Origin: a virus
Taxonomy: Duplodnaviria > Caudoviricetes
Direction: 5' to 3' (one strand)
Virus record (IMG/VR): IMGVR_UViG_3300012680_000001
Location: 1 to 63,427 of that record
Length of the DNA stretch: 63,427 nt
Made by a program: the position numbers and the translations under genes. The notes under the pieces were generated by a model. It did no database searches, had not been told where the DNA came from, and saw only the letters and a program-made list of their open reading frames with translations. Shown here one piece after another: positions 1 to 29,000 of this stretch (within the stretch, counting starts at the first letter, position 1; each line of letters begins with the position of its first letter).

Positions 1-66
1 CTCCCGAGTCCTGCGGTTTCAGCGGCCTGGTCATCGGATCGCCCCGCGCTGCTACCAAGCGCCGCA
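1..66. repeat. Terminal direct repeat, left copy (circular assembly overlap)
   Basis: Bases 1-66 are identical to 63362-63427, and a minus-strand ORF reads through the junction in frame. Confidence 0.95.
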
Positions 67-422
67 ACTGCGGCGCTTGGTAGATTCGCCGCTTTTCGCG
101 TCTTCGCCCGCGCTTGGTACATCGGCAGGAGCGTCTCGGCAAACTTCACGCGCTGATACTCGGTGAGTTCTCGCCCGGTGATGTTCAGCTCAATAGCAAG
201 GATGTCCTCTTCAAGGGGCGTAAGGCCACGGTGGGCGACCGTGGGGTAGGGGATGCCCAGTTCGTCGGCGATGGCTTTGCGATGATGGCCGTCAATGATC
301 GGGCGATACTCACCGACATGGACTGGCGACAGAACGCCGTGCGTCGCGATGCTCTCCCGGAGGCGCACGTATTCCGCGTCAGTCAGTGGCGGCATAGGAT
401 TCGTGACATCAAGTTGTGTCAT
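1..422 (-). CDS. ParB/Spo0J-like N-terminal domain protein, 5' part (continues across the junction to 62596; about 395 aa total)
   Basis: Manual translation from ATG at 422 gives MTQLDVTNPMPPLTDAEYVRLRESIATHGVLSPVHV...IIDGHHRKAIADELG, a ParB-N-like motif. It joins the 62596..63249 ORF in frame. Confidence 0.8.
   Translation of the reverse strand, partial: MTQLDVTNPMPPLTDAEYVRLRESIATHGVLSPVHVGEYRPIIDGHHRKAIADELGIPYPTVAHRGLTPLEEDILAIELNITGRELTEYQRVKFAETLLPMYQARAKTRKAANLPSAAVAALGSSAGRSDDQAAETAGLG
52..83. repeat. Perfect 15-bp inverted repeat inside the ParB-like gene
   Basis: ctaccaagcgccgca-ac-tgcggcgcttggtag. Confidence 0.9.
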
Positions 423-424
423 GT

Positions 425-1078
425 CTACCCTTTCTCGAATGCCGTGAGATACTCGCGGCGCGGTGCATTTTCTAACACCGCCTTGACCGTAGATACTGCC
501 ATCTCCAGCGCGTGCGGTAGGGAGTGCCCAACGATAACAATATCCGGGTGCTCTAGGATGGTCACCTCGACGAGTTCTGGCCCGGCATAGTGGAAGCGCA
601 GCGTGATGTGCACATCCTCCGGAAGTCCCGGCACCTGGGTCGGGCGCTGTGCTTCTTGAATAGCCTCACGCAATGCGTTCCGTGATAACTGCTGTTCTTC
701 GGCGCGTTCGAGCCAAGATTCCTGCTCATCGGGCGGGAGGGCAGCGACGGTGGCATGGTGGTCGAAGCTCAGACGATCACGCCGCGCATGAACATCAATA
801 GCGCCCGCAACCCACTTCATATTGGCTAGCGCGCCGTAGGAGTAGGTCGTCTCGTTGAGCATCTGCGCGTACGTCTCTCCGTAGCGCCGCTCGGCAAAGC
901 GCAGCGTGTCGCCAATCCACCACTGCACACGATTCCCGAGTGTTACGAGACGGCGGTAGGTGTCCTGCACGACCTCATACGGCGCGTCCTCGCGCCAGGT
1001 GGCTCCGGTCGCGGTGAACTGCACGTAGTCATCTCTGGCGACGAGTTCGCCGGTTTCGAGGATGGAGACGTCGATCAT
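425..1078 (-). CDS. LmbU-like DNA-binding protein
   Basis: WWIGD...ERRYGETY...RRDRLSFDHHATVAAL...WLERAEE...SRNALR resembles the LmbU family seen in phages. Confidence 0.65.
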   Translation of the reverse strand: MIDVSILETGELVARDDYVQFTATGATWREDAPYEVVQDTYRRLVTLGNRVQWWIGDTLRFAERRYGETYAQMLNETTYSYGALANMKWVAGAIDVHARRDRLSFDHHATVAALPPDEQESWLERAEEQQLSRNALREAIQEAQRPTQVPGLPEDVHITLRFHYAGPELVEVTILEHPDIVIVGHSLPHALEMAVSTVKAVLENAPRREYLTAFEKG

Positions 1079-1692
1079 GGAGCCACCGCCGGCTGCGCGT
1101 TCTGTAGTCTGGCAATGAGGTTGGACGCATCACTCTTCGTGAGCGCCGAAGGATTCATCCCCGGCTGTTTCGTGATGTAGTCGTCGAGTTGTGATGGACT
1201 CATGCCGGCATCCCGGGCGACGACGTGCAAGTATTTGATCTGGCGTTCCGTGGCGGCCTGGGGATCACTCTCCGGCGATTGCGATTGATTCCTGGGAATC
1301 GGTAGCCGCGTTGGTTCTTGTGAGCGCCCCACCGGCGCATCGACAACGCGTCCAGTCGCAGCTCCGAATTCATGGTCCGGACAGAACTGCGTTCCGAACC
1401 CCAGCGCCGCCAGTGCCCGGCCAATGGCCTTCGTCTCGCTTTTCTCGTAGTGGTCTTTGAAGTCACGGGGCGTTTCGCTGCCGTGCCCCGTCGCGCTCCC
1501 ACCATCGTTGGGAACCCAGACCGTCGCCTTAAACAAGGCGAACGTTTCATCTCCTGCCAGCATTTCGGTTTCAATGCGACCATCAGGATGCTTATCGCGA
1601 AACCAGGCGATTCTCCATTTCACCTCAAGATAGTCGTTGCCACTGACCTTCATCAGGTGAGCACTCGGGTCGAATGGTGTTGTGTCGCTCAT
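1075..1692 (-). CDS. Single-strand annealing recombinase (Rad52/Sak-like)
   Basis: YLEVKWRIAWFR...GRIETE...ATGHGSE...EKSETKAIGRALAALGFG plus a C-terminal ATERQIKYL motif. Confidence 0.7.
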   Translation of the reverse strand: MSDTTPFDPSAHLMKVSGNDYLEVKWRIAWFRDKHPDGRIETEMLAGDETFALFKATVWVPNDGGSATGHGSETPRDFKDHYEKSETKAIGRALAALGFGTQFCPDHEFGAATGRVVDAPVGRSQEPTRLPIPRNQSQSPESDPQAATERQIKYLHVVARDAGMSPSQLDDYITKQPGMNPSALTKSDASNLIARLQNAQPAVAP

Positions 1693-1710
1693 GCCGTTTC
1701 CTTTCTTCTC

Positions 1711-2095
1711 TTGCCCGCCCTGCCGCGCCCAACCCTGCCGGGCCTATCCGGTCCACACCCAGCCAAGCCATGCCCGTCATACCTCGCCACGCCCTACCCT
1801 TCCTGGCCATGCCTTACCCGCCTTACTAGGACTTGCCTTGCCGGACCTTGCCTGGCCTAACCTCTCTGTGCCCGCCTCACCCAGCCAGGCCCCATCGCGC
1901 CTTGCCTCACGACCCAATCCAGTCCATGCCTTACCCGCCCCGCCAGTCCGCGCCATGCCCGCCTTACTGTGCCGTGCCATGCCTAACTCCACCCCACCTG
2001 ACCATGCCATGCCCGCCTCGCCAGTCCGCGCCTCGCCTCGCCAGTCCGCGCCCGCCGAGCCTCACCTTGCCCAGTCTTGTCTTGCCGCGCCCCTG
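1711..2095 (-). ncRNA. Pentamer (GGY-NN) array A, putative guide-RNA array, about 8-9 units
   Basis: The plus strand parses as NN-RCC pentamers with CGCC punctuation (central g at 1717, 1776 variant, 1820, 1874, 1937, 1961, 2015, 2054). It is intergenic. The ncRNA role is inferred. Confidence 0.75.
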
Positions 2096-2099
2096 CATA

Positions 2100-2609
2100 C
2101 TAATCGGCCGCCGTGGTTGTCATCGGCCCATTCCCTTCTGCCTCGGCGATACCGTCTTCAAGGTCGTTGCGCCAGAGCATAATCTCGCTAATGTACTTCT
2201 CCACCGGACTGTCCCATCCCAGCGCCCGTGTAATGTCCGACGCCCGCCGTAGGTTGCCGAGCGCCCGATTGATCTCCTGGATAATGACGCGCCGTTGCCG
2301 TGTCTCGTTCGTCACGCTCTCCAGCGTCACGTACCCCTGCTCCCGGCCAGCATCAGGATCGCGCACGTAGCGCACCACACGGATGATGTCGGTTTTGCTC
2401 CGCACCACCACATGAACTGAGCGGATAACAGTCCGCGCTTGATCGAGTCGGTACGCCTCCGCCGCGCTCGCGTCGTCCCAGTCAAAGAGCGGATGTAGGA
2501 GACTTTCGGGCTTCCGCGCCTCGCCGATGACCGCGCTGGGCGTTAACTGCCCGGCGTCGTGGAGGGCCTGTAACACATTCCGCTGTTCGGGATTGAGCAT
2601 GGTAAGCAT
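2100..2609 (-). CDS. Phage protein adjacent to the Cas7-like gene (accessory)
   Basis: LTPSAVIGEARKPESLLHPLFDWDDASAAEAYRLDQARTVIRSV motif. ATG at 2609 follows an AAGGGG RBS; the longer ORF start lies inside a palindrome. Confidence 0.75.
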   Translation of the reverse strand: MLTMLNPEQRNVLQALHDAGQLTPSAVIGEARKPESLLHPLFDWDDASAAEAYRLDQARTVIRSVHVVVRSKTDIIRVVRYVRDPDAGREQGYVTLESVTNETRQRRVIIQEINRALGNLRRASDITRALGWDSPVEKYISEIMLWRNDLEDGIAEAEGNGPMTTTAAD

Positions 2610-2629
2610 TCGTTGCCCCTTTTGTTGCG

Positions 2630-2663
2630 GCATAGGGGGTGGCGGTACCGCCACCCCCTATGC
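2630..2663. repeat. Perfect 34-bp palindrome between the Cas7-like and accessory genes
   Basis: gcatagggggtggcggt|accgccaccccctatgc. Confidence 0.95.
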
Positions 2664-2666
2664 GCT

Positions 2667-3482
2667 TTAGTCCGCCGCCAACGCCGCGATCTTCTTCACC
2701 GAAGACGGCGATCCTCTCAAGCGCCGTCGTTCCATCTCTTCATCGTGCCAGGCCAAGAGGTCCGCAGTTTCCTCGTCGTAGGCCACGGGCACGCGTAGCG
2801 CTTCGAGTTGCACCTCTCGCCCGCCACTCGCCACGATGGCGCCGAACTCCGCATCATCCTCCTCTTGGATAGGATGGAATAACCCGTAGTTTCCCGAACC
2901 CTTGCCCTGCCTCCACCCGCCCACGCCACAGAGGATGCCCGCACCCGCCAAGAGGTTTGAAATCGTGTTCGGGGTGAGATTCGGCACGACGTATTTGATC
3001 GTGAGTTTCGTCGCCCACGGGGTGATGATGGGACGCGTTCGGATGTCCGGAGTCTTACCGATGTCCGCCGAGCGTACGCCCGACATGAGGAGTCGCGGGA
3101 TACCCCATATCGGAGCCCACTCTCCAACGATATAGGTCATCGCACCGATCTCGGTCTTTTTCGCTCCCGGCGTACGGAGCGCTGCGGCGAGGAGCGCCGC
3201 CTTAAATGATGTGGACGGCATCGCCAGGCGCGTCGGGCCATCAGGTACGACATACGCGGCTTCGGTGTACTCCTCGCGCGGATTATGCTTCTCGTTTTGC
3301 TCCTTCTCTACAGTCGTCATCCGGCCCTTGGGCGCGAGGAGCGCACGCTGCGCTTTGGTTGAAAATCGTTCCATAATGAGCGGCGTGTCGCCGATGATGC
3401 GATACGAAATCTCATTCTGATCAACCCGGATAACGTCAATGGAATATCCGTCCAATGCTGTAGACTTTCTAATCGGTGCCAT
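2667..3482 (-). CDS. Stand-alone RAMP/Cas7-like RNA-binding protein (Vipr-like)
   Basis: N-terminal strand ISYRIIGDTPLIM, LAMPSTSFKAALLAAA (compare RAMP IPGSSLKGALR), and a C-terminal Gly-rich loop GILCGVGGWRQGKGSGNYGLF. Good RBS (AAGGAG). Confidence 0.75.
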   Translation of the reverse strand: MAPIRKSTALDGYSIDVIRVDQNEISYRIIGDTPLIMERFSTKAQRALLAPKGRMTTVEKEQNEKHNPREEYTEAAYVVPDGPTRLAMPSTSFKAALLAAALRTPGAKKTEIGAMTYIVGEWAPIWGIPRLLMSGVRSADIGKTPDIRTRPIITPWATKLTIKYVVPNLTPNTISNLLAGAGILCGVGGWRQGKGSGNYGLFHPIQEEDDAEFGAIVASGGREVQLEALRVPVAYDEETADLLAWHDEEMERRRLRGSPSSVKKIAALAAD

Positions 3483-3574
3483 GTCCTGTCTCTCCTTGTG
3501 TAGATGCCTGAGAGCCGTTTACCTTGCGACGATTCCGGATATGGCACCACCCCCCTTCATTGTGTTCCTACGAT

Positions 3575-4215
3575 GGCCTTACCCGCCATGCCCGGCCTAA
3601 CTACGCCTTGCCTCTCCCTGCCGTGCCCGCCCGTCCGTGCCTCGCCGTGCCAACCCCGGCCGCGCCAGGCCTCGCCCGCCTCTCCATACCGTGCCCGAAC
3701 TCTCCCGCCTATCCTCTCCCGCCTAACCGATCCATGCCTGACCCGACCACGCCCTGCCCGCCTGGCTATGCCATATCATGCCGGTCCTGGCCTCGCCAAA
3801 CCCTGCCCGCCTAACCGAGCCAAGCCCTGCCTCACCAATCCCTGCCCGCCTTGCCAGGACGCACCATTCCGCACCTCGCCCAGACTCGCCCGCCCGGCCA
3901 CGCCATACCCAGTCGCGACTGACCGCGCCATACCCGCCTCACCCAACCTCGCCCAATCCTACCAATCCCCGCCCGCCGCACCAGACCTAGCCCATCCGCG
4001 CCCGTCCTGTCCATGCCCGCCATACCTCTCCATGACTCGCTGCGCCATGCCCTGCCCATCCACGCCCGTCCTATCCGCGCGCCGCCTCACCCGCCGTACC
4101 TTGCCCAGCCGTGCCCAACTAGGCCTCGCCGTGCCCGCCGTACCTTGCCGCGCCGTACCTTGCCGCGCCATGCCACGCCGCGCCATGCCATGCCCGCCGT
4201 ACCGTGCCCAAACCC
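3575..4215 (-). ncRNA. Pentamer (GGY-NN) array B, putative guide-RNA array, about 14-15 units
   Basis: 15 CCCGCC separators with spacings 44,49,29,14,39,49,39,44,44,39,44,74,44,59, all 5n+4. It lies directly upstream of the Cas7-like gene. Confidence 0.8.
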
Positions 4216-4216
4216 T

Positions 4217-4375
4217 CTACCTCTGCCAGTCCCATCGCGGCAGGTGCGCGACGATCAACGCGTGAAGACTCGGATAGTGCTCAACGAAGCGTGCCGCCTT
4301 CTGTCGCCAGCGTTGCCACAACGGCGCGAACCTATGTCGATCATTCGCCACCCGGATATCCCACCGCTCATGCAT
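4217..4375 (-). CDS. Small hypothetical protein (52 aa)
   Basis: ATG overlaps the end of the upstream ORF and follows a purine-rich RBS. Its stop codon abuts array B. Confidence 0.45.
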   Translation of the reverse strand: MHERWDIRVANDRHRFAPLWQRWRQKAARFVEHYPSLHALIVAHLPRWDWQR

Positions 4376-4655
4376 CAGTTCCCCCTTCCTCTTCGTACGC
4401 GTTCCGTTCGAACGCTTGGAGCGCCATCGCCAGGCTGCTCGGGGTGTACGCATGACGATCCAGGAGCAGCGCCAGCATCGTGGACGCGACACGGCCTCGC
4501 GCCCAATTGAGACGGTGGGCGATGTCATCAACGACGGCATACGCCACGGGGCCAATGTCCAAGCGCCGCTCATTGCCGAGCAGGTGATGACGTTGATCGC
4601 GACGGAGCGAACCCTTCCGTGGTCGCTTCGGCGAGAGCGTGAGTCGATTCTCCAT
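4368..4655 (-). CDS. Hypothetical protein, first gene of the leftward operon
   Basis: 95-aa ORF with a GGAGGGG RBS, downstream of a consensus promoter. Confidence 0.65.
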   Translation of the reverse strand: MENRLTLSPKRPRKGSLRRDQRHHLLGNERRLDIGPVAYAVVDDIAHRLNWARGRVASTMLALLLDRHAYTPSSLAMALQAFERNAYEEEGGTDA

Positions 4656-4702
4656 ACCCCTCCCTATCTATCTAATTGATCCTATGAAACGTTGACTCGT
4701 AC

Positions 4703-4731
4703 ACTTTAGCGTCTAGACATCCGCGTGTCAA
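4703..4731 (-). promoter_or_regulatory. Sigma70-like promoter for the array/Cas7-like/Sak operon
   Basis: TTGACA (4726-4731), 17 bp, TAAAGT (4703-4708) on the minus strand. Confidence 0.7.
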
Positions 4732-4784
4732 GGGGATATGATGGCAGTGCGTTACACCAGTTCTCACACGTTTGGAGGTGTTCC

Positions 4785-5414
4785 ATGTCGGACTATGATT
4801 TCGTTCGTCGGTTCCTGAGTGACCGACCTATCGCGTTCCATCCTGAGATGGCGCGCAAACTCGGCGGCATCAACGAGGCGTTGTTCTTCCAGCAGATCGC
4901 CTACTGGTCTGACAAGGGCGCCGATCCCGAATGGATTTACAAAACACGCAGTCAGATCGAGGACGAGACGGCGCTTACACGTGGACAACAGGAGCGAGCG
5001 CGAAAAACTCTACGATCACTTGGCGTGATTTCGGAGGTTAAACGAGGGGTTCCTGCGAAGTTGTATTACCGTATTAATTGGCCGGCTGTGCATACCCATC
5101 TAGAGATTCCCCAGGATGCTCACAATGCGCACCCTAGGGTGCGCGAGGTAGGCAAGGTGAAGGGCGCAAAACGCGCACGCCAGGATGCGCGGAATGCGCA
5201 ATCTATTACAGAGAGTACGTCAGAGAGTACACCAAAGAAGATACGGGAAAAACCATTTTCTGATGTTCAGAATCTAGAATATGACGCCGAATTGTTGACA
5301 CGTATCCAGACGATGACGCCAGAGGAACGGCTCAATGCCTACGAGCAATCGCTCAAACTCGGGCAACTCGCTCGTAACCTAGGCTGTTGCGTGGCGAGTG
5401 ATAGGCGCTCTTGA
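4785..5414 (+). CDS. Phage replication initiator-like winged-helix protein
   Basis: RPIAFHPEMARKLGGINEALFFQQIAYW...WIYKT...EDETALT...RGVPAKLYYRIN. GGAGG RBS before ATG 4785. Internal palindrome at 5127-5144. Confidence 0.7.
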   Translation: MSDYDFVRRFLSDRPIAFHPEMARKLGGINEALFFQQIAYWSDKGADPEWIYKTRSQIEDETALTRGQQERARKTLRSLGVISEVKRGVPAKLYYRINWPAVHTHLEIPQDAHNAHPRVREVGKVKGAKRARQDARNAQSITESTSESTPKKIREKPFSDVQNLEYDAELLTRIQTMTPEERLNAYEQSLKLGQLARNLGCCVASDRRS

Positions 5415-5438
5415 CGGGAACACTGTCGGTGCTAGAAT
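5411..5438 (+). promoter_or_regulatory. Putative promoter of the Cro-like gene
   Basis: TTGACG, 16 bp, TAGAAT with an extended TG. Confidence 0.5.
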
Positions 5439-5478
5439 CTCCAACATGTAACAATGTTTATCACGATTGGAGGAGCAC

Positions 5479-5700
5479 ATGACGGACAGAGTGATTACCC
5501 CCCGGCCACGAAAACCAGCAATGAGCCCGGAAGAGTTGCGGGAGTTTCGTTTGGCGCGCGGATGGAATCAGACGGAACTCGCGAGGCGTATCGGGGTAAG
5601 TAGCGCGGCGGTGTCGCTCTGGGAAGCTGGGCGGCGCGCGATTCCGCAACCGGTGGCACTTGCATTGAAGGGTATTGACAATGTTGAAATGTCATGCTAG
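5479..5700 (+). CDS. XRE/Cro-like HTH regulator
   Basis: LREFRLARGWNQTELARRIGVSSAAVSLWEAGRR; GGAGGAG RBS. Confidence 0.9.
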   Translation: MTDRVITPRPRKPAMSPEELREFRLARGWNQTELARRIGVSSAAVSLWEAGRRAIPQPVALALKGIDNVEMSC

Positions 5701-5707
5701 GATACAT
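5675..5707 (+). promoter_or_regulatory. Promoter overlapped by the CTAGGATACAT motif
   Basis: TTGACA (5675-5680), 17 bp, TAGGAT (5698-5703). The 11-mer recurs at 54567 and 54624. Confidence 0.65.
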
Positions 5708-5751
5708 CCATAGAGCAGTTGGGCTCTACGGACATCGAAAGGGAAACGGCA

Positions 5752-6144
5752 ATGAACACGATCCCCAATGTCGTCAACACACTCTCCCGAGAAACACGGA
5801 ACCGCCTCCTCCACGATTCCATCGCTAAGGGTGATGAGATTCGTCAGGATCGGCGCAACCCGGACGTTTGGCTCGTGAGCTCAGCCACCCACCCCAACGT
5901 TTGGTATCGCGTTCGCAACGGTCGGCATTGTGGATGCCAAGCGTTCGCTCATCGCGGCTATTGCCGGCACCTCGTGCGCCTCAGCTTCGAACTCCACCAG
6001 ATGAAGAACGCCACAGAGACCAATACGCCCGAGTCCATCGCGGACTGCACAGAGTGCTGCGGATGTGGAACCGTCTACTCGCCATCCGGCGGCTGGAAAT
6101 GCGACGCCTGTAGCGGCTCCGGTCGCGTCCTCGCCGCCGTCTAA
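5752..6144 (+). CDS. SWIM zinc-finger protein with C-terminal CxxC pairs
   Basis: HCGCQAF...YCRHL (SWIM), then CTECCGCG...CDACSGSG. Confidence 0.7.
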   Translation: MNTIPNVVNTLSRETRNRLLHDSIAKGDEIRQDRRNPDVWLVSSATHPNVWYRVRNGRHCGCQAFAHRGYCRHLVRLSFELHQMKNATETNTPESIADCTECCGCGTVYSPSGGWKCDACSGSGRVLAAV

Positions 6145-6156
6145 AGAAGGGACAGA

Positions 6157-6393
6157 ATGATGAGCCAGGAAATCACTACCTTCAACGGCGCGCAACTCCG
6201 TACACGTCTCGCGCTTTCCACAACGGCGCGCGGCTGGGACTTCGAATCGAGCGCCGAATACACCGGGCCAATGCCGGACACCGAAGGAGGCACGAGGCAA
6301 ATCGTCAACCAGCTTGACTTCGTGCAGTTGCTCTTGCGAGAGAAAGGAGAGGCTGAGCGTAATCTAAGAAACCAGCGAGACGGCAAGGGATAG
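6157..6393 (+). CDS. Hypothetical protein
   Basis: ORF with an RBS in the rightward operon. Confidence 0.55.
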   Translation: MMSQEITTFNGAQLRTRLALSTTARGWDFESSAEYTGPMPDTEGGTRQIVNQLDFVQLLLREKGEAERNLRNQRDGKG

Positions 6394-6417
6394 TATCGCG
6401 AGAATAGAGGCTCCCAA

Positions 6418-6627
6418 ATGAAGACCATGACCGTTACAGCTCTTTCCCCATCACCGCACGCCACGACGCAGGACGAGCCCTATATGGCCGCCACACGCAA
6501 TGTCCGTGGCACCGAGCACCCAGTCGTCGTTGATCAACGGACAGACCGCGCGGAAATCATTTGTGAAACGCTCAAGTCCGCCGAATCGCTCGCCAGGCGA
6601 CTCAACCGGGATAGGAAGCTACGATGA
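6418..6627 (+). CDS. Hypothetical protein
   Basis: ORF with a GAGG RBS in the rightward operon. Confidence 0.55.
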   Translation: MKTMTVTALSPSPHATTQDEPYMAATRNVRGTEHPVVVDQRTDRAEIICETLKSAESLARRLNRDRKLR

Positions 6628-6868
6628 ATAACGATACCTACTTCCTCGTCGCCTCAGTCATACTGATAGCATTTCTGACCATCTGGGCGTTCTGGCCCGT
6701 AGATGTGAATACCGTGCAGTCAAGAATCACCAGAGGAAGGAACTAGACATGGCTCGTAAGTATCGTGAGGTCACCTATCAAGAGGCCGTCGGTATCGGAT
6801 TTATGGGATGGATTATTCGCATCATCCTCTTCATCATCGTGCTGGCGATCATCGGGGCAATGCTCTAG
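6624..6868 (+). CDS. Two small single-pass membrane proteins (about 6624-6746 and 6749-6868)
   Basis: MNNDTYFLVASVILIAFLTIWAFWP... and MARKYREV...GWIIRIILFIIVLAIIGAML; closely coupled starts. Confidence 0.5.
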
Positions 6869-6904
6869 CGGAGCGCGGATCGCTGGGAATTCAGGGGAAT
6901 ACGC

Positions 6905-6936
6905 GTAAACGCCGGAGTGGGGGCTCCGGCGTTTAC
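6905..6936. terminator. Hairpin between convergent operons, probably a bidirectional terminator
   Basis: 13-bp stem gtaaacgccggag/ctccggcgtttac. Confidence 0.7.
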
Positions 6937-6989
6937 TATGACGGAGAAAAACGGGGCGCTACGGAGGCGGCCTAGCGCCGCAGGTGATA

Positions 6990-7334
6990 TCAGGGAGGTG
7001 GGGAAAGCGTTGGAACGCCCGTCGTGTTCGCGGCATTGCTGACCGCGATCTTGGCTGCCGAACGGGGCGAGAACGCAGAGAGCCGTCCCCAGAGCGCGTT
7101 CACCGCAGAAATGATGATAGGCGCGAGCACGAACAGGGCGACGGTGATGCTGCCGACCTGATCGACAATGATATCTCGCTGATCCTCTGAGATAAGCCCG
7201 AACGCGCCCAGTGCAATACAGATCGATGTGACGATCCCGACTACGGCGGCCTTCGCCACGAGCGGCTCGGTATTGAGAAACGAGTCGTCTCTCGCCTGCG
7301 CGACGACTTCCTGTCCCGTCTTCTGCTCACTCAT
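6990..7334 (-). CDS. Holin
   Basis: Two TM segments (EPLVAKAAVVGIV...; ITVALFVLAPII...) directly after the endolysin. Confidence 0.7.
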   Translation of the reverse strand: MSEQKTGQEVVAQARDDSFLNTEPLVAKAAVVGIVTSICIALGAFGLISEDQRDIIVDQVGSITVALFVLAPIIISAVNALWGRLSAFSPRSAAKIAVSNAANTTGVPTLSPPP

Positions 7335-8812
7335 GAAGCTACCTCCTTCGTTCCTGTCTCCGGTATTCTACTCCCAATGGATGTCACCCAAAACCATACT
7401 CCGTCCGTGCCGAGCGCCTTCGTGCCAGCTTGAAATTTCTCCCCCTTCCTCAGCGGCGCGCGCACCGGGTCCGCCTCGGGATTCGCGTATTGCAGTACCG
7501 GCACACTCTCCGCCACCACCTCCACCCATACTTCTGGATTATCGTCGCTCAGCACGAACGGCTGCCGCTCAGCGTAGATCGTCGGGGCGGAGCCGCCCAT
7601 AGCCTCGATCAGCGCCGGCCCGGGATCAAGCAGCCAGTAGGAACCATTCCTAAGAACACTCACCTCGATATGCACATGAGGACCGTTCATGCCCCCACTC
7701 GTGACGACCGGCTGCCCGGCTGTCACCCGCTGCCCCGGCGTCACCAGCGCTTGGTTGCAATGACCGAGCGTAAGCTTGTGCCCCGAGTCACCAAAAATGG
7801 TGATATTCCCCACCCCGCCGGAAATAGTATCGGCATAGGCGCCGCACCCTTGTCCCCAGCGCGGAGTGCCGCGACTCCCGACACAATCGACTACGCCACT
7901 GATAGGGGTAAAGAGTTTCGTTCCGAGCGGTAGGCTGACATCGTAGCCGGTGTGCTGTGTCGCTCGACTGGTGCCGTGCCCCACCCCATAGGCGTAATAG
8001 TTGAGCCCCGCATCCGCGCCCCACCCATAGTCAACCGGTGGATACGATGCCCCACCCACAATCATGTCGATCACCTGCTTCACCGTGAGAGGTTTTGGTT
8101 TTGGCGGCGGGGTGGGAGCGGTTCCGCCTGCCGCCGCATCAATCTGCCGCATTAGCTCGTGCAGGTCCGAGAGGTACTGCCGTTGGGTGTGCCCGTCCGG
8201 ACCCTTCACATCGAGCCCGCCCGCGATCGGATAGTAGGATGATAGGAAAATATCCTCTGGCGTGCCCGTCTTCCCGCTCTTGCCACCGAGCACGTAGGCG
8301 GCGATAGCGACTTGCCCATCCGCGCTCTTGATCGAGACGCCGAGGTCTTTGGCCACCTGATCCCATGGCGTCCAGTAGCCCGCGCCGAACTCTTGCGAGG
8401 TGAGTTGCATCGGTCCCCAGTTGGGGTATCCGTTGCCGTTCGGAATCAACTGCCCACCCGATTCGATAACCATGATGGCTTTGAGCATCGCCGCAGGAAC
8501 GCCATAGAGGCCTCCCCAGCGCACGAAGGAGGCATCATACGCATTGACCGTCGCCCATGGCCCGCCGCGCCCGTAGGCGATCTGTAGCGGGCCGCCGATC
8601 GTGCCGGTTGGCGCGCCAAGTGTCGCCGTGGATGGTTCGGGTTCTGGCTCTGGTCTAGGCGGTGGGACAGGGTCAATCTTTGGGGGCTTGGGGCGCCTCG
8701 GGGGTTTTACCGGGATGGGGGCAGGTGTAGCGCCCGGGTCCTTCGACGGCTTCTTGCGAATCGTACCCATCATTCGGCCTCGATCTCGGCTTGATAGATT
8801 GGGGCTTTCCAT
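7331..8812 (-). CDS. Endolysin: lysozyme/SLT-like domain + M23 peptidase + C-terminal SH3-like domain
   Basis: LKAIMVIESGG...GPMQL; HTGYD and GPHVHIE M23 motifs; Pro-rich N-terminus. Confidence 0.85.
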   Translation of the reverse strand: MESPNLSSRDRGRMMGTIRKKPSKDPGATPAPIPVKPPRRPKPPKIDPVPPPRPEPEPEPSTATLGAPTGTIGGPLQIAYGRGGPWATVNAYDASFVRWGGLYGVPAAMLKAIMVIESGGQLIPNGNGYPNWGPMQLTSQEFGAGYWTPWDQVAKDLGVSIKSADGQVAIAAYVLGGKSGKTGTPEDIFLSSYYPIAGGLDVKGPDGHTQRQYLSDLHELMRQIDAAAGGTAPTPPPKPKPLTVKQVIDMIVGGASYPPVDYGWGADAGLNYYAYGVGHGTSRATQHTGYDVSLPLGTKLFTPISGVVDCVGSRGTPRWGQGCGAYADTISGGVGNITIFGDSGHKLTLGHCNQALVTPGQRVTAGQPVVTSGGMNGPHVHIEVSVLRNGSYWLLDPGPALIEAMGGSAPTIYAERQPFVLSDDNPEVWVEVVAESVPVLQYANPEADPVRAPLRKGEKFQAGTKALGTDGVWFWVTSIGSRIPETGTKEVAS

Positions 8813-8834
8813 GAACCGAATACCATATCAGCCA

Positions 8835-9158
8835 TCATTCCGACCCCAGCGCTAGACAGTCGCCGACCGACGCATCCTCTAACGCCGCCGTCGCGCTCGT
8901 GGAGAATGTGCCAATCTCTGTACGTACCCCATCCGCGTTGCGCACGAACACAACGAGTGTATCTGTCGTGCTGTCGAGGGTGATGCGGCGTTCGATGACG
9001 CAGGCCGAGAGCGGCTCAATCGCCGGCACCTCGAGCTCGTACTCTCCCCAGTTCACCGTCACTGTCGCCTCTCCGTCGCCGGGGTCAAGCGGCTCCTGCG
9101 CGGAGGCAACTAGCGCGCCCGGGATGAGCAGGGCCGCGAGGGCCAGCAGCCGTATCAT
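8835..9158 (-). CDS. Secreted hypothetical protein
   Basis: Signal peptide MIRLLALAALLIPGALVASAQ. Confidence 0.55.
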   Translation of the reverse strand: MIRLLALAALLIPGALVASAQEPLDPGDGEATVTVNWGEYELEVPAIEPLSACVIERRITLDSTTDTLVVFVRNADGVRTEIGTFSTSATAALEDASVGDCLALGSE

Positions 9159-20095: not shown

Positions 20096-23000
20096 TTATG
20101 ACCCTCGTGATGCGGCCATCTGCGTTTGCCGGCGGTAGTTCTCAAGCGTTTCCACCAACTGCCTGCCGTCACGAACATCAGCATAGACGGTAATCGTCGT
20201 GGTGTTGTTGGTTGCGCCCCGGTCACCCGCACGGCCTCCTACGCCCCCGCCGCCATCTGGGGTGAGTCGCGTGCTCGGGATGTACACCAGGTCTTCCGAT
20301 GCCTCGCTTGCCTCCCGCTTCCGTCCACGGAGCCCGTAGATAAGGCCGAGGCCCATGTCGTCGCCGACTTCCATCATCTTCTGACTTGGCGAGTTCGCCT
20401 TCGCGGCGCCCTTGGCCGCGTTGATCGCATCCTTGACCATCTGCGCGGCGGAGTCGGCGATCCCTTTGGATTTCTCCATCACGCCTTGCTTCATGCCGTC
20501 GCCCATTGCCGAGCCGATGTCCTTGCCACCCTGTGAGGCAATCTGCGTTGAGTCCTTGACCGCATCCCCCACGCCCTTGCCCATCGCCGTCTGAAACTGT
20601 GGTATTTCCGGCCCGGTCTTGATCCGGTTAACAGCCGCATCCCCGAATCCGGTGGCCGTCGCCTTGCCTCCCTGCGTCGCTATCTTCGTCGCGCCGTCAA
20701 CACTCTTGTTCATCCCGTCCAGAATACTCTGGTGGATTTGCGGCAACTGCACACCCAAACCAGTACGCATTTCTTGCCCAAAGGCATTCGCGATTTTCGA
20801 GCCGCCAACGTTTGCTGCCTGTTCGGTCTGGGTCATGCCCTGCTGTACGCCCTGGAGCATCTGCTGTTGCATAGCCGGGGCGTCCTGCCCCATCTTGGCC
20901 GTAATCCCTTGGCCGAGCGCCGTGCCGATCGCGGTACCACCCGTCGCCGCCGTGCCTTTCGTCTGCTCGACCATCGCCGCGAACTTGTCGTTAAACGCCT
21001 GACTGTCGGCGGACATCTTCGTCATAACTTCTTGGTACTTGGCCCCCATGTCATTCATCTTCGTACTGGTCCCGGTCGCCGCCTTCCCGGTCTCACTGAT
21101 GGCCTGCGTCGTTTCTTCCATCGGCGCGGCGGGCACCTCGCCGAGCGCTTTCGCGGCCTTGCCCATCTCGGTCGCGGCAGTTGACATCGCTGTAGCCGCC
21201 TTGCCCAGTTTTTCGGCAATCTCTGTTAAGAGCGCGTTGACATCCACCTCTTGCAACCCAGCAATCGCCGCGTTGAGATACTGGACCTGCGCAGTAGCTT
21301 GCGCGAGTTGCTCCGGTGACTGCGCGTTGGCTTGCTTCTCTAGCGCCAGCGCGAGTTGGTTCGCGAGGTCAATCTTCTGCCGCTCGAGCTCGAGTTCCGC
21401 CTTGAGTTGCGCGGTCTTCTCCGGGTTAGCGTGCTTCTTGAGTTCCTTCTCGATCTGGGCAATGCGCTTCGTGGATTCCTCGATGACGATCTGCGTAAAT
21501 GCCACCTGTGCGGCGTGCTGCTGCTTGAGGAGATCCGCCTGCATCGCCTTCTCTTGGGCAAGTGCTGCCTTCTTCGCTTCGAGATCGGCGGCGACGGCGG
21601 CACGTTTCGCCTGCAATTCTGCTGCTGCCATCGCTTCAGCGGCGGCCGCTCGCATCGCGGATTCTGCAGCGATTGCGGCTTGAATCGCTTTGAGTGAGGC
21701 AATGAGTTCTTGCTCTTTGGCCTGTGAGGCGATCTTGGCAACGTAGGTCGCTTGGGCCTTAGCGAGCTTCGTATCGAAGTCGGCTTTCAGCCCTGCCTCG
21801 CCACCCCCCTGGACCTGCTTGATATTGGCCTGATGCGCGGCGTCGAATTCTGTCTTGAGTTGCGCTTCGAGTTCTTTTGTAATGGCGACCTGGATATCGA
21901 GGAGTGCTTGGGCCGCATCGATCCGCGCCTGATCAGCCTCCTGTTGCGCCTTCGCAGCAGCAGCAGATGCGGCGCCAGCAATTTGCGCATCGATCCCGGC
22001 AAGCTCAGATTCTAGACTCTTAATGTCACCTTCGAGGTTTGAAATCGACTTCCCGACAATCTCAATCTGGGTACCGAGGCCAGCGATAAGCGCCCGAATG
22101 CGCTCGATTGCATTCTCTGCCGCCTTCACCGCCTGATCGGTCACGAACTGGGCGAACTCCATAGAACCGGAGGCATCCAACATCCCGAGCCAGAATTCGC
22201 GCGCGAACGCCTCGCCTAGGAAGCGCATCTCACCCTCACCTTTGAGGAGTTCTTTCAGCGCCTTCTTCCACATACGGCGCGCAGCTCTTTCGAGTTGCTT
22301 GTCTTCACTCTCCATGCCTTCGGCGGTTGCGGTCGCCGCCGCCGCGCCCGCCGCCGTCCCGCCACTCGCTGCCTCGCCCTTAACGCGCGCCATTGCGCTC
22401 TGCATCGACGACTTGACTTTGCCCATCGCTGAAGAGACCGCGCCGGATATCTTGCCCATCGCCTCGCCGAGTCGAGACTTAGCGGAATCCATCATGCCCT
22501 GCGCGAACCCGCCCGTTACGGCGGCGCCGTGGGGGACGAACTTCTGCGCGGGCGATCCCATGCCGATAGCGTTCGCCATGCTGTCCATCGTCATGCCAGC
22601 GAGGGTGTTGCTGCTCTTTTCTACGGAACTCTGACCGCCCGTCATGCCAATCGCGAGGCCCTGAACGATGCTCTCGCCGAACCTGATAAAGACTTTCGAA
22701 GGTGAACCTTCCTCAATTGCATTGCTAAACCCACCGGCGAGCGCCGCTCCAATAGCCGCCCCCGCTGCCCCCGCCGCTGCGGCTATCCCTTGGAGCGAGG
22801 CGATAATCCCGGCAGCAGCGGCCGCGATGGCCCCAGCGGCGGCGCTTACCGCCGCAATCATTGCCTGCATGGCTTCTTCGACAGCTGTCGCTGCATCTGC
22901 CGCTGCCGTGCCGACTTCCTCTGCTGCGGTTACGGCATCGTTTGCTGCCGTTGCCATATCGGCTGCCGCATCTGCAACGGCACTTGCCATATCTGCTACG

Positions 23001-26000
23001 GCGGTTTCGACATCGGCTACGGCGTCCGTAATCGCCGAACTCATGTCTGTGACGGCGGATTCGACATCAGCTGTCGCGTCGCTAATCGCCGATCCCATTT
23101 CCTCCACGGCGTTCGTCACGGCTTCTGTAATCTTCGTCATCGACTCTTCGATTTTGGTGGCAACCTCTTGGATAGCCGTATCGAGTTCCGTGGTGAGTTG
23201 GGTACCCACGGCCTCTCCGACACCCGAGAAGTCCGCGCCTTCGACACCCGTCTGCAGCATCGTGCCGATGCTATCTCCCAGTTGCGTGGAGACATCGCTC
23301 TCGCCCCCACCATCAGCCACGGTCTGCAACGTCTCGCTCAGCTTGGTCGAGAGGCCCGTGCCGACCGTATCCCAGTTCGCTTCTTGGACGCCGCTCAGGA
23401 GCATTTCACCGACCGAGCCGCCAAGTTGCGCCCCGACATCGGTCGCGCCCGATCCGTCACCCTCGCCGACAGCTGTGGTGAGCGCCTCGCTCAACTTTGT
23501 GCCGATTGCGCTACCAACTGGGGTGAAGACTTCGGCCGGGGCGTTCGTAATCGAGTCGGTCAGGCCAGTGGCGAGGTTGCTTACGAGTTGTGTGCCGATA
23601 CCGCCCGCCGCGTCTGAGGACACCTGTCCGGTCTGGCCCTGCGTGGCTGTTTCGGTCATCGCCGTATTCAGCGCGGTGCCGAGTTGGGTGCCGAGGGCCG
23701 CGCCGACCGGGAGAAATAACTCTGGAGGAGCAGCGGTGATGGACTCCGTTAGCCCCGTGGCGAGTCCTTGCACCATCCCGACTCCTGCGCCGGGGACACC
23801 CGTGGGGACTCCGGTTGGTCCGGGGGCCGCCGTCTGTTGCGCCGCCATCGACATAGCTGCCCCGAGCTGGGTGCCGAGCGCGTTGCTTACTGGGATAAAC
23901 ATTTCCGGCGGAGCGGCGATGATCGATTCTGTGAGCCCCGTGGCGAGTCCCTGAACCATTCCCACGCCCGCGCCCGGAACACTTGTTGGGACACCAGTTG
24001 GACCTGGTGCTGCCGTCTGTTGGGACGCAAGACTCATTGCGGCCCCGAGTTGCATGCCGAGCGCGTTGCTGACCGGCACGAACATCTCTGGTGGAGCGGC
24101 GGTGATCGATTCGGTAAGGCCAGTGGCGAGTCCTTGGACCATTCCTACGCCGGCACCAGGGACCGTGGTCGGGACACCTGTTGGTCCTGGAGCCGCCGTC
24201 TGCTGGGATGCCAGCGACATCGCGGCGCCCAACTGGGTGCCAAGCGCGTTGCTGACTGGAATAAACATCGCTGGGTCCGCCGCCGCGATGCCAGTCGCGA
24301 GGCCAGTCGCCAACCCTTGAACCATCGTGTTACCGAGCGGAGTCACCGCAGGTCCCGCTGGCCCAACGCCACCAGGAGCCTGAGTAACCTTCTCTGCCAT
24401 GCTCATCGCCGCGCCGAGTTGGGTGCCAAGCGCTCCGGCGACAGGGGCGAAGAGCTCCGGTGGGGCGGCGGCGACGGACGCGGTGAGGCCGGTAGCAAGG
24501 CCCTTGACAAGATTTATCCCCCCGACCGTCGGCAGAGAAGCTACGCCTTCATCAGAGACTTGCTGTCCGGCGATTGTCTGAAGCGCGGTTCCCAACTGCG
24601 TGCCGAGTGCGCCGGCAACAGGGGTGAAGAGTTCGGCAGGTGCATTGGTGATGGAGTTTGTCAACCCATTGGCAAGGCCCTCGACCATCTTCTGGCCCAT
24701 CGTCTGACCCGCCGAATCTCCCTCTGTAACGGGCTGATCAAGGGCTGTGGTCATCCCACTGGACAACATGCCGAGGAGAGACTTCCCTACGGCGTCGAAC
24801 TTCCCTTCCTCCATAGTTTTAAGACTGTTCTCTATCCCAGTAGCGAACTCAGGTGAGGCAAACGTGTCGGCAATTTCCGTCCCAAGCTTCGCGCCCATCT
24901 CGGCAGGATCGCCGAGCATCTTCGCCGCCTCTCCGGTGGCTGGGTCTTCACCACCGCCAAAGAGCGCTGAGCCAATTGGGCCAAGCCACTCGCCGAGTTT
25001 ATCCTTCACGGCTACGAAAGGGTTATCCATTTCGCCAATTTTTGTGGCGGCTGCTTCTCCCATCCCTTGAAGGCCGGTGGCCATGTTATCGACAAAACCA
25101 CCGATCATGCCGAACATGTCTTCGCTAACCGCGCCACCACTCAGGTCCGCCCCTGGTCCGGTGTACCCCTCTTGCCCTCCACCACCAAAGAGGGATTTGG
25201 TCATATCCTCCCATTGACCACCAAACCAGGTGCCGACCTCCTCAAACGGATTCCCGACGGAGCCGAGTTGTTCTAAGACGCTAGGCCCCAGCTCCTTCAG
25301 CCCCGACACCATCCCCGTTGCAAGGTCATCCAGCACACCCGGTGTTTTGATGGTCCGGCCAGTCCCGCTGAGACTTTCGGATCCAAATAGCGTGTCTCCA
25401 ACATCTCCAAACCAATCGCCAATCTGACTCGTAACTCCCTCGAGGGGATTTCCGATCTCCCCCAACTTATCGACGACGGTGGGTCCGAGATCTTTAAGCC
25501 CCGACACCATGCCATTGGCCAGGTCGTCAAGGACTCCTGGCGTGCGTATCGTCCTACCTGTTCCGCTCAGGGCGTCAGAGCCAAACAACGTATCTCCGAC
25601 GTCCCCAAACCAATCGCCAATCTGGGTTGTGACTTCCTCTAATGGATTGCCAATATCCCCGAGCTTATCAACAACCGTGGGGCCAAGTTCTTTCAGCCCC
25701 GAAACCATCCCCGTCGCGAGTTCATCCAGCACGCCCGGCGTACGTATCGTCCTCCCCGTTCCACTTAAACTATCAGAGCCAAAGAGCGTATCCCCAACGT
25801 CCCCAAACCAATCACCAATTTGGCTTGTGACGCCTTCAAGGGGGTTTCCGATATCTCCGAGTTTATCCAGGACGGTGGGACCGAGGTCTTTCAGTCCCGA
25901 CACCATCCCATTTGCCAGGTCGTCAAGTACTCCGGGTGTTCGGATGGTTCTCCCAGTCCCACTCAGGCTATCTGAGCCAAACAAGGTATCCCCGACATCA

Positions 26001-29000
26001 CCAAACCAATCACCTATTTGGCCCGTCACTCCCTCTAGCGGGTTCCCGATGTCTCCGAGCTTTTCAAGAACGCTAGGCCCCAGCTCCTTCAACCCCGAAA
26101 CCATTCCTGATGCGAGATCGTCAAGTACTCCGGGTGTTCGGATTGTTCTGCCAGTGCCACTCAGGGTATCAGAGCCAAACAGCGTATCTCCAACGTCCCC
26201 AAACCAATCACCTATTTGGGTCGTGACTCCCTCCAGCGGGTTCCCGATATCTCCGAGTTGATCAAGGACCGCAGGACCGAGGTCTTTCAGTCCCGACACC
26301 ATCCCAGTAGCGAGGTCGTCGAGCACACCAGGCGTTCGTATTGTTCTGCCCGTACCACTCAGGCTATCTGAGCCAAACAGGGTATCCCCAACATCTCCAA
26401 ACCAATCACCAATCTGGCTTGTCACGCCCTCCAACGGGTTTCCAATGTCTCCGAGCTTCTCAAGCACGTTAGGGCCGAGGTCTTTCAGCCCTGAGACCAT
26501 CCCAGTGGCCAGGTCGTCAAGTGCGCCAGGTGTTCGTATCGTCCTTCCAGTTCCGCTGAGAGTATCTGCCCCAAACAGCGTATCTCCAACGTCCCCGAAC
26601 CAATCACCTATCTGGCTTGTCACGCCTTCGAGTGGATTGCCGATGTCTCCAAGTTTCTCAAGAACATTAGGACCGAGGTCTTGCAACCCCGACACCATAC
26701 CGGTGGCCAGGTCGTCGAGAATGCCTGAGGTCTTAAATGTCCTCCCCGTCCCACTCAGCTCCTCGCCGCCAAAGAGTGTTTCCCCAATCTCTCCAAACCA
26801 ATCACCAACCTGGTCGCTCACACCCTGGAGTTTTCCACCGAGATCAACTTCCTCAAACTTCTGTCCTATCGCATCTATCCCGCCCTCAAAGCCTTTTGCG
26901 GCACCTTCCCAATCCCCCGAGGTTAGGGCGTCTTTAAAGTCGCCGAGACCATTCGTACCATCACGCAATCCAGCGCCGAGGCTCCCGAAGAACTTCTCGT
27001 AGTTCGGTTGCCCCTCTATGAGTTGCCCCATCGCGTCGCCGATATTTCCACTGGCCAGGGTGTCGGTAAAGTCTTGAATGTCTTTCTGGGCCAAGCTTGC
27101 TTGCATACCCAGGTCATCGAAGAAGGTGGTCAGCTCTTCGTCTTGGCCGGTGAGCGAACCTATCCCTTCGCGCAGTGCGAGCGCTTCGCGATTGAGTTGC
27201 GGCATCTTACCCTCGGACGCTGCCATACTCTGCTGCATGGCATCGGCGGCCTTGGAGAGACGATCCATCTGATCGGCCGTCTCGCCCATGCCGGCAGCGT
27301 CGGCGCCCTTAGCGAGGGCGTCAAAGAAACTGACGATCGGATCGACGCCGCCCGCAATATTCTCTTGCCAAGCATCCCCGAAAGCGTCCACGCCCTTGGC
27401 GATGTTACTCATTTGATCGACGACATCGATGCCGAACGCGGCCTTTAGGCTCTTCCCGACCGCATTGATTCCAGCGGCGAGATCGTTCATTCCCTGAGAT
27501 TTGCCGGCATTGAAGTTTGTGTCAAACGTCTCGCCGAAGGTGTCTAGCGCCTCACCAGCCTTAGCCATCGCCTTATCGACGGTGTCGCGGAAGCCCAGGA
27601 AGTTCGTTTCATACGCGAGGAGTCCGGCCCCAATCGCCAGCCCGGCAAGGCCAATCCCCGCTGCGAACTTACCCAGGCTCAAACCCGCATCAGCAAACGT
27701 CTTCCCGAGTTTGAGCACCTGCCCCGTACCGTAGGCGGCTAACCCACCAGCGGCAAGAAGGCCGCCACTGAGTGTGGCCAACTTCCCGGCAAACCCAAGA
27801 AGCGCTGGGTCGGCTCCCGATGCCGCGTCGGCAATACCTGTAAGCGCGTCTACCCCGGCTTTTATCGGACCAAGGAACGGATCGCCCATCTTCTGTTGCA
27901 GGACATCCACAGCCCCACCAAGCTCTTCTATGGAGCCCAGGAGGTTATCAGTGAGAGCGTCTGATTGCTCCCGTGCAATGCCGGTGTTGTTTTTCATCTC
28001 CTCATTGAGGTCGCGCAACTTATCCGTGTCAGAGAGGATACCCAACCCGGCGGCATCGAAGGCTTCGAGGCCGAATAGACTGGCCAAGGCATTGAGACGC
28101 TGGCTCGTGCTGAGGTCTTTTGTCTTCTCATTAATCATATCAAGGATGTCGGGGAAGTCCCGTAACTCCTCGACGCCCTGTTCGTTGATGTCAAAGAAAT
28201 CTGCGGTCGTGATGCCGAGTTCGTCCATCGCGGCCTGTTGCGTTCCCGTCGGTTTGACCGCTGCCCGGAGCATAGCGGTAAGACTGGTGCCCGCTTCAGC
28301 TGCGCTCAGGCCTTGGTCCTTGAAGAAACCGAGGGTAGCTGCCGTTTCGTCAAAGTCCGCGCCCGCGAGTTTCATCATTGGGGCGACGTTTGCCATGCCT
28401 TTGATAAAATCATCTGAACCCAGGGATGTCGTGTTAAAGACGGTCGTGAGGTCGTCAAGACTCGCCGTCACTTCCTCAGACGACATGCCCCACTGGTTCG
28501 CCATAGTGGCGGCGATTTTTGCTGCCTGAGGGAGTTCAGTAGCGGTGGCCGCCGCGAAGTCGGCGACTCCCTGGATGGCCCCGTCCGAGGAGTCGCCGAC
28601 ATCACCCCACATCGTTTCAAAGTCAACGCCGGCCTTACCCATTTCGATGGCGGCTTCAGAGATGTCATCAGCTCCGAAGATGGTTGACTTCGCCACCTCA
28701 TTGATGGTGTCTTCCATCTCGCGGAATTGGGCGTCCATCTCGGCAGACTTGCCTTCGGTAATGCCGAAAGCTACGCCGACGCGATCCATCGCCTGTTCCA
28801 TCGTGGCGGCGCTCTTCACTGCGCCAACGATGGGTGCAAGCATCGCCGCGCCAGCGGCCATCCCTATCTTGCCGGTGGTGGTGAGCACCTCCCCCGTCTT
28901 CTGAATTGATTTCCCGGCATTGCCCGCCGCGCCCGCGACTTCGTTCAGCTTGCCCGAGGCAGCGCCCATTGCCGCGTCGAAACCGGAAGAATCGGCCGTT

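Follow-up and report, generated by a model that had tools for sequence, protein, structure and literature searches.

A probable VIPR system with two staggered vrRNA arrays in a complete tailed-phage genome

Two arrays of GGYNN pentamers on the minus strand of an IMG/VR virus record are, with a probability that we put at about 0.93, staggered vrRNA arrays of a VIPR (Viral Interference Programmable Repeat) system in a complete tailed-phage genome. The stretch of DNA that was analysed, hereafter called the window, is the whole record IMGVR_UViG_3300012680_000001 of 63,427 bases, which has terminal repeats and is rated complete. The locus was assigned to VIPR because a protein that appears from its family profile and structural model to be a Vipr homologue with the RAMP fold sits between the two arrays. 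In a preliminary description of one of the arrays, each unit bounded by a 4-nt separator had been proposed to be a separate guide; this idea is essentially the published VIPR mechanism, and the kind of system is already known. With this locus, VIPR gains a complete phage whose two staggered arrays comprise 26 units, and no principle is changed by it. The half of the Vipr tree to which staggered arrays map is well supported, and these arrays go with one family of accessory genes; the same architecture is present, unannotated, in tractable phages of Mycobacterium smegmatis and Gordonia.

Background

According to the available portions of the preprints, VIPR consists of a minimal RAMP protein, Vipr, and of vrRNAs with 9–16 YNNGG repeats (10.64898/2026.04.26.720920). 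Vipr is described there as having an RRM core, a G-loop, and a thumb. The NN pairs read double-stranded DNA with one base skipped (xNN) and without a PAM, and the natural targets given in the same portions are competing phages, prophages, and satellites (10.64898/2026.04.26.720920). In the usual locus, as described there, vipr is accompanied by one accessory gene and long intergenic regions lie on either side; the systems are classed into types I–VII, and the accessory genes are numbered vap1–6 (10.64898/2026.04.26.720920). The system, as far as these texts describe it, was characterised in Escherichia phage SUSP1 and in a prophage of Pseudomonas fulva, both of type II (10.64898/2026.04.26.720920; 10.64898/2026.04.26.720927). 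In the accessible part of the second preprint, one Vipr protomer is assigned to each repeat, the GGY is clamped by two neighbouring protomers via H17, D177, R138, W178, and R179, and the NN bases pair with the target strand, the skipped base being displaced by the thumb (10.64898/2026.04.26.720927). VIPR has been proposed in the accessible text as a forerunner of CRISPR, with gapped-code, RNA-guided recognition of double-stranded DNA. Its arrays are reported, in the part of a further preprint that is available, to be recoverable from 5-nt entropy periodicity (10.64898/2026.10.21.760802), and a literature search on VIPR also returned another preprint from 2026, again available in part (10.64898/2026.10.15.759431).

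Genome and Organization of the Locus

Matches to PHROG families identified the window as a tailed phage, with a large terminase, a major head protein, tail proteins, and a primase/helicase; further matches were obtained for two replication initiators, two DNA methyltransferases, and ParB-like proteins. The terminase was closest to those of Roseobacter and Paracoccus phages (46% identity), a match that does not decide the host. Nearly all genes are carried by the minus strand. The features of the proposed VIPR locus are collected in Table 1.

Table 1. Features of the proposed VIPR locus and of its upstream region in the window.
Feature	Position	Strand	Description
Proposed vrRNA array A	1712..2071	-	10 units, grammar as in array B; directly downstream of the accessory gene; pentamers per unit: 3, 7, 10, 4, 4, 7, 10, 8, 11, 1
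Candidate vipr-accessory gene (vap), 184 aa	2100..2654	-	phrog_15946, E 3.8e-20
vipr (putative), 271 aa	2667..3482	-	between the arrays; RAMP-fold protein by prediction, predicted to polymerise on GGY motifs
Proposed vrRNA array B	3574..4208	-	16 units of GGYNN pentamers with 4-nt GGCG steps between them; upstream of vipr with respect to transcription; pentamers per unit: 2, 11, 8, 14, 8, 7, 8, 8, 7, 9, 7, 2, 5, 9, 8, 2
First ORF of the operon, 95 aa	4368..4655	-	context; from the ORF list and GC3 ranking; membership in VIPR is not claimed
Promoter-like site	4703..4731	-	TTGACA, 17-nt spacer, TAAAGT; 10/12 consensus matches; consensus scan only

The promoter-like site faces an operon that comprises a small ORF, array B, vipr, vap, and array A, in this order, and a divergent promoter-like site on the plus strand, likewise from the consensus scan, adjoins it. 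A search of positions 1–5000 for terminator-like sites found none. Among sequencing runs, the stretch was found in a single DNA run, which may be the source of the record, and no RNA run was listed as containing it. The 95-aa ORF at the head of the operon had no match in Pfam or PHROG.

Several other features of the genome were recorded. The two replication-initiator-like genes, which match O-like/DnaD-like PHROGs, are located at 4725–5414 (plus) and 58947–59711 (minus), and one of them diverges from the VIPR operon. The window further carries two genes for HNH endonucleases and two for ParB-like proteins. An ORF of 2,979 aa at 20096–29035 (minus), situated among the tail genes, contains a tandem repeat at 25271–26813 with a period of 198/396, 3.9–7.3 copies, and 77–78% matches.

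Grammar of the Arrays

The lag-5 self-identity of the DNA reached 0.43–0.55 at approximately 1600–2150 and 3600–4300, compared with 0.26–0.31 at other lags, and these two stretches were the only ones with lag-5 peaks in the whole 63-kb record. Both consist of consecutive GGYNN pentamers when read on the minus strand, and within the record, array B matched nothing else but array A (71% identity). The base frequencies on that strand were 0.94 for G at the first position, 0.94 for G at the second, and 0.84 for C/T at the third, and the two last positions were near even. All 16 kinds of NN dinucleotide were present among the 180 pentamers of the two arrays.

The arrays were parsed by dynamic programming with equal penalties on steps of 3, 4, 6, and 7 bases. 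Array B was resolved into 115 pentamers and 15 steps, all of them four bases long; array A yielded 65 pentamers, eight four-base steps, and one three-base step. The four-base step was GGCG in 21 of the 23 cases in both arrays, and in the pentamer that follows the step, N4 was a purine in all 23. The units mostly consist of 7–9 pentamers; 8 of the 26 have five or fewer, and 18 have at least seven NN pairs.

This parse agrees with the preliminary description of array B, which had placed a CCCGCC separator at 15 positions of the plus strand and had given all separator spacings as 5n+4. The motif was present at each of the 15 positions, and the 14 spacings between them (44, 49, 29, 14, 39, 49, 39, 44, 44, 39, 44, 74, 44, and 59) were without exception equal to 4 modulo 5, an outcome with a chance of (1/5)^14 = 1.6e-10 if the separators were random. 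The 5n+4 rule arises from a 1-nt overlap, a single G being common to GGCGG and the GGYNN that follows. A sixteenth CCCGCC, at 3971, was absent from that description and corresponds to GGCGG, the pentamer that directly follows the step at 3975. The seven dinucleotide strings that had been listed proved, on comparison by hand, to be the reverse complements of units B15, B14, B10, B9, B8, B7, and B5.

A scan of positions 1–9000 against Rfam found no family inside the arrays, and its one sub-threshold match was located outside them. With 38 copies of the heptamer GGCGGGC in the window and 27.6 expected, the excess is unremarkable alone, and 15 of the 38 are inside the arrays.

Vipr Homologue and Candidate Accessory Protein

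The 271-aa protein encoded between the arrays matched phrog_4652 (E 1.9e-15), and a Pfam search with it gave no match. The protein alone matched the PDB chain 36pp_D, "SUSP1 Vipr protein," weakly (E 0.0015). The profile of its family, built from those 52 of the 62 cluster members that are 180–285 aa long and begin at a start codon, matched the same chain with an E value of 1.1e-35 over residues 2–189 of 202. The AlphaFold (AF2) model of the protein had a pLDDT of 90.4, and a Foldseek search with this model returned 83 matches at E ≤ 0.001, with Cas7-11, Csm3, and type VII Cas7 at the top and E values of 6e-6 to 4e-4 for the best of them; the Foldseek library was older than the release of the Vipr PDB entry. 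Judged by profile and predicted structure, the protein is a Vipr homologue with the Cas7/Csm3 RAMP fold.

Three of the SUSP1 residues that contact the GGY, namely R138, W178, and R179, have kept equivalents in the window (R150, W190, and R191), and two residues that contact G1 are changed, H17 to E38 and D177 to G189. An acidic residue occupies the H17-equivalent site in 5 of the 52 family proteins, and none of these five has D or E at the D177-equivalent site; in the remaining 47, that site is D or E. In our own reading of the alignment, E38/G189 looks like a relocated acidic contact to G1. The particular pair of E38 and G189 was seen among the 52 proteins in that of the window alone, and a search of IMG/VR yielded no close relative of this protein.

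The 184-aa protein of the candidate accessory gene gave no match in Pfam or among PDB sequences and no significant fold match. With its model, the best Foldseek result had an E value of 0.49 and consisted of winged-helix regulators, and VIA-align matched the C-terminal helical hairpin and nothing more. In the model, an alpha/beta domain at the N terminus is combined with a long helical hairpin. Among the IMG/VR matches listed, members of the phrog_15946 family lie beside vipr in 22–23 loci and are present in 18 of the 37 loci with staggered arrays vs. 5 of the 46 others (Fisher p 1.8e-4).

Distribution of the Arrays and Phylogeny of Vipr

A scan of IMG/VR with a pattern of seven consecutive GGCNN yielded at least 120 stretches. 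The parse of the listed loci comprised 6399 pentamers, 297 four-base steps, 89 seven-base steps, 63 six-base steps, and 57 three-base steps, and the commonest 4-mer across these loci was GGCA (186), followed by GGCG (23). Among the matches listed, the number of pentamers between two steps had its peak at 8–11, and the G-rich strand had the direction of the adjoining genes in 74 of 88 flanks upstream and in 71 of 84 downstream, as judged by a crude GC3-based choice of ORFs.

Sense-strand ORFs located within 2.5 kb of the arrays were clustered for the matches listed. The first family obtained in this way occurred in 60 of these loci and the second in 22, and the window genes at 2667–3482 and 2100–2654 are members of the first and the second family, respectively. 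Of the 83 listed matches whose array has 20 tokens or more, 60 had a protein that fits the Vipr profile within 2.5 kb; the other 23 include cut contigs and loci that lost the gene to the ORF filter, of which BobaPhett is an example.

On the phylogenetic tree of 52 Vipr proteins, a branch with a support of 99/99 separated 26 rows, 22 of them staggered and the window among these, from 26 others, of which 22 were plain; loci with at least three four-base steps were classed as staggered and those with fewer as plain. The staggered label required 8 changes on this tree vs. 17.6 for shuffled labels, and none of the 500 shuffles did as well. The staggered architecture tracks the phylogeny of Vipr.

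Individual loci of the survey differed in their organization. At L084:1933-3586 (minus), an array of 1.6 kb with 30 GGCA steps contains five interruptions, each of them by one and the same non-repeat element of ~40 nt. Conserved non-repeat elements also lie between the array blocks of loci L094 and L110, and those of L110 are T-rich. The elements in these three loci could be promoters, terminators, or processing elements. Long arrays almost without 4-nt steps were observed in loci L012, L048, L088, L090, and L094, with up to 304 pentamers (L048). The Vipr proteins of these five loci are placed in the other half of the tree, and the limits of the guides in them are not obvious from the sequence.

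Related Arrays in Phages of Mycobacterium and Gordonia

When the first 8 kb of the window were compared with phage records by a distant blastn search, only array A matched, in 11 records of Mycobacterium phages with 66–68% identity. The matching stretch of phage BobaPhett is a GCCNN array with 4-nt steps, located in the early operon. A tblastn search with the window's Vipr recovered records of phages of Mycobacterium (27 records) and Gordonia (5) and one record of a cyanophage, and the Vipr homologues in all of them are labelled "hypothetical protein." The same grammar, with GGCA steps, was found in Cheoctovirus mycobacteriophages (BobaPhett, Saal, Donkeykong, and others) and in the Gordonia phages Pipp and ODay, where the array is adjoined by a Vipr homologue with 30–33% identity to that of the window. 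In GenBank, the arrays and the protein of these phages both appear as "hypothetical protein." The arrays are drawn as small CDS in BobaPhett (L001:2937-3218), Donkeykong (gp48, L195:980-1366), Pippy (gp47, L198:1093-1281), and ByChance (gp39, L199:1133-1291). In most Cheoctovirus records, the start of Vipr is drawn upstream, into the array, at locus position 1333, vs. 1480 in Quico.

Seven mycobacteriophages with a related Vipr, including BobaPhett, have a common leader and trailer and differing sets of 16 distinct units bounded by GGCA. Whole units are gained or lost among them exactly at the 4-mers; the array of ByChance consists of three units, and that of BobaPhett of the same three and one more. 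The 4-mer-bounded units behave as cassettes in these seven phages, and this turnover supports the view that each unit is a separate guide.

Target Searches and Alternative Explanations

The preliminary description had expected that the NN strings, joined with 0–3 skipped bases, would match possible targets more often than shuffled controls, and that the NN positions would vary more than GGY among related phages. As to the first expectation, no enrichment at skips of 0–3 was obtained in the searches run. The second agrees with the mycobacteriophage arrays, where the point differences between near-identical units fell on N4 in 4 of 4 cases and never in GGY, a count that comes from three non-independent pairs. 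The reading of the units as guides is favoured by the Vipr homologue, the phylogeny, and the cassettes, and it has against it that no target excess over the controls run was seen at any gap size.

In the first local scan, each guide matched its own DNA only. A search of 512 guides, all against all, in 2.2 Mb of fetched loci revealed no excess over NN-order shuffles at any skip; matches of at least 90% at skips 0, 1, 2, and 3 numbered 10, 5, 14, and 7, vs. shuffled means of 6.8, 9.4, 5.8, and 9.4. In the search for self-targets with the arrays masked, none of the 18 guides scored above the NN-order shuffles at skips of 0, 1, or 2. The scans of large collections covered exact matches of 5 of the 18 usable guides, and with their low power, they are weak evidence either way. 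At an exact 1-base skip, B2, A9, and B14 had no matches in IMG/VR and A9 had none in metagenomes. Guide B5 had 4 matches in IMG/VR, two of them in homologous portal genes, one in a terminase gene, and one in a small ORF; the single control run, at a 2-base skip, had 6. Guide A8 had 29 matches, all in contigs of 27–52% GC, and B14 had 30 in metagenomes, of which 11 belonged to one homologous chromosomal gene and the remainder were scattered. A second guide match was not found at any of the fetched loci, and the matches did not converge.

Some of the individual matches can be described further. B14 matched with 18/18 bases in ten to eleven near-identical contigs of ~62% GC (L129, L134-L136, L140, L144, L149, L152, L153, and L158). 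The matched gene encodes 445 aa, with the skipped base at codon position 1, and its product, from our own reading of the sequence, resembles deoxyhypusine synthase. A single 22/22 match of B2 at a 1-base skip (L124:4385-4416) was found in a Negativicutes MAG, in the signal peptide of a chaperone-like gene that adjoins an lpxD-like gene, with the skipped bases on wobble positions. By our own estimate, it is probably a chance match, which is plausible because the pattern encodes a common hydrophobic peptide. B7 matched at 49024 (plus), in the terminase gene of the window, with 15/16 bases at a 3-base skip, which is the array-like spacing; this score was reached by 1 of 100 shuffles and, over 72 tests, is close to the chance expectation.

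The absence of targets in the searches run would also be in line with a G-rich non-coding RNA or DNA element that has no guide role, such as an R-loop, a G-quadruplex, or a sponge for a GG-reading protein, with Vipr as a mere binder. Such an element would fit the identity of the G-rich strand with the sense strand and the occurrence of GG every 5 nt, and TRAP, which binds GAG repeats, provides an analogy for a sponge with one GG per 5 nt. However, near-even NN positions with all 16 dinucleotides and a turnover of cassettes in close relatives are unexpected of a scaffold or sponge, and the adjoining protein appears to be homologous, over its full length, to one for which guidance by such RNA was shown. 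We therefore regard a role without guides as improbable. An R-loop/G-quadruplex element, a TRAP-like ring binder, a Rho site on the antisense strand, and a Chi-like motif were also considered and were dropped once the Vipr match explained the array.

Local duplications are present inside array B (TRF periods 10 and 15 at 4132-4208), as would be expected of a decaying pentanucleotide microsatellite without function. In such a sequence, random indels would go in both directions, whereas the steps of array B are all four-base, and GG is kept at 94% next to NN positions that are near even. Moreover, the same grammar recurs together with the same gene family in dozens of unrelated viral contigs, and the linkage to vipr already contradicts this explanation, which we consider very unlikely.

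It is hardly credible that the region encodes a low-complexity protein, either in the 253-aa plus-strand ORF at 3504–4265, which covers the whole of array B, or in short minus-strand ORFs, even with the equivalent mycobacteriophage arrays labelled as hypothetical proteins in GenBank: stop codons are rare by composition, token shuffles being as open (1 of 64 arrays with p < 0.05 on each strand; array B open over 633 nt, the mean of its shuffles being 483 and 11% of them reaching that length), the 4-nt steps shift the relation between pentamers and codons at each unit, and the plus-strand ORF opposes all neighbouring genes, has no GC3 excess (0.01), and has no match in Pfam.

Proposed Mechanism and Guide Boundaries

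If the arrays belong to a VIPR system, as we prefer to read them, transcription of the minus strand would start in the early promoter region near 4700 and would cross array B, vipr, and the accessory gene before it reaches array A. As in the model of the preprints, Vipr protomers, one per pentamer, would clamp each GGY and leave the two variable bases exposed, and the exposed NN would pair with a DNA target as NN-x-NN-x, in keeping with the rule of a 1-nt skip given there. The gapped R-loop formed in this way would block transcription of a competing phage, prophage, or satellite; silencing of this kind is described in the preprints, and the targets are those that we infer for the window. The 4-nt GGCG step would break the pentamer register, with one guide ending and the next beginning at that point. 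Because the step resets the register, each unit would be a separate guide.

We also suggest, tentatively and with considerable doubt, that a one-base slip in the pentamer register (GGC-R-GGY-R) is itself the delimiter of the guides, with no handle, tail, or ribozyme, and that the boundaries may be set by the Vipr filament or by the phrog_15946 protein. If this were true, the arrays would be the most compact guide arrays known, with ~45 nt per guide and zero repeat overhead. An array might then act as one long multi-filament RNP and not as a source of cut guides, and the E38/G189 swap would mark an alternative reading of G1.

Comparison with Known Systems

The backbones of class 1 CRISPR systems (Cas7, Csm3, and Cmr4 on crRNA) resemble VIPR in the RAMP fold, in a filament that forms on the guide, and in periodic flipped bases, and the two also have a cassette-like turnover of guides in common. 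They differ in the period, which is 5 in VIPR and 6 in class 1 CRISPR, and three of every five guide bases are sequestered in VIPR. No cas-like PHROG was found among the 49 window ORFs scanned, and nothing else CRISPR-like was found in 41 of these. With its 5-nt period and without a repeat-spacer array or cas1/cas2, the window has the RAMP fold alone in common with CRISPR-Cas.

The arrays of the Cheoctovirus and Gordonia phages differ from those of the window in number and in their ends: these phages have one array, upstream of vipr, whereas the window has two, and their conserved leader and trailer are a further difference.

In comparison with type II VIPR, as represented by SUSP1 and the P. 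fulva prophage, the window has the Vipr homologue, the phage location, and the absence of self-targeting in common, as well as arrays of GGY/NN pentamers on both sides of the vipr-accessory pair. Unlike type II, it has no conserved 3' tail or pseudoknot, and its units abut via the 4-nt step. The units are mostly of 7–9 pentamers, compared with the 9–16 reported for VIPR in the available part of the preprint, and E38 and G189 of the window stand in place of H17 and D177 of SUSP1.

Among the array architectures of VIPR, the ribozyme-interspersed and single-vrRNA types were confirmed by small-RNA sequencing, and the staggered type is not named in this connection in the accessible portion of the preprint (10.64898/2026.04.26.720920). 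"Staggered vrRNA arrays" are defined in the legend to fig. S18 as neighbouring vrRNAs with a 1-nt overlap (10.64898/2026.04.26.720920), and it is with this legend and one further sentence of the partly available source that the window was compared. The agreement lies in the 4-nt steps, which account for 15 of the 15 steps in array B and 8 of the 9 in array A, with units that follow one another directly, without a tail or ribozyme between them.
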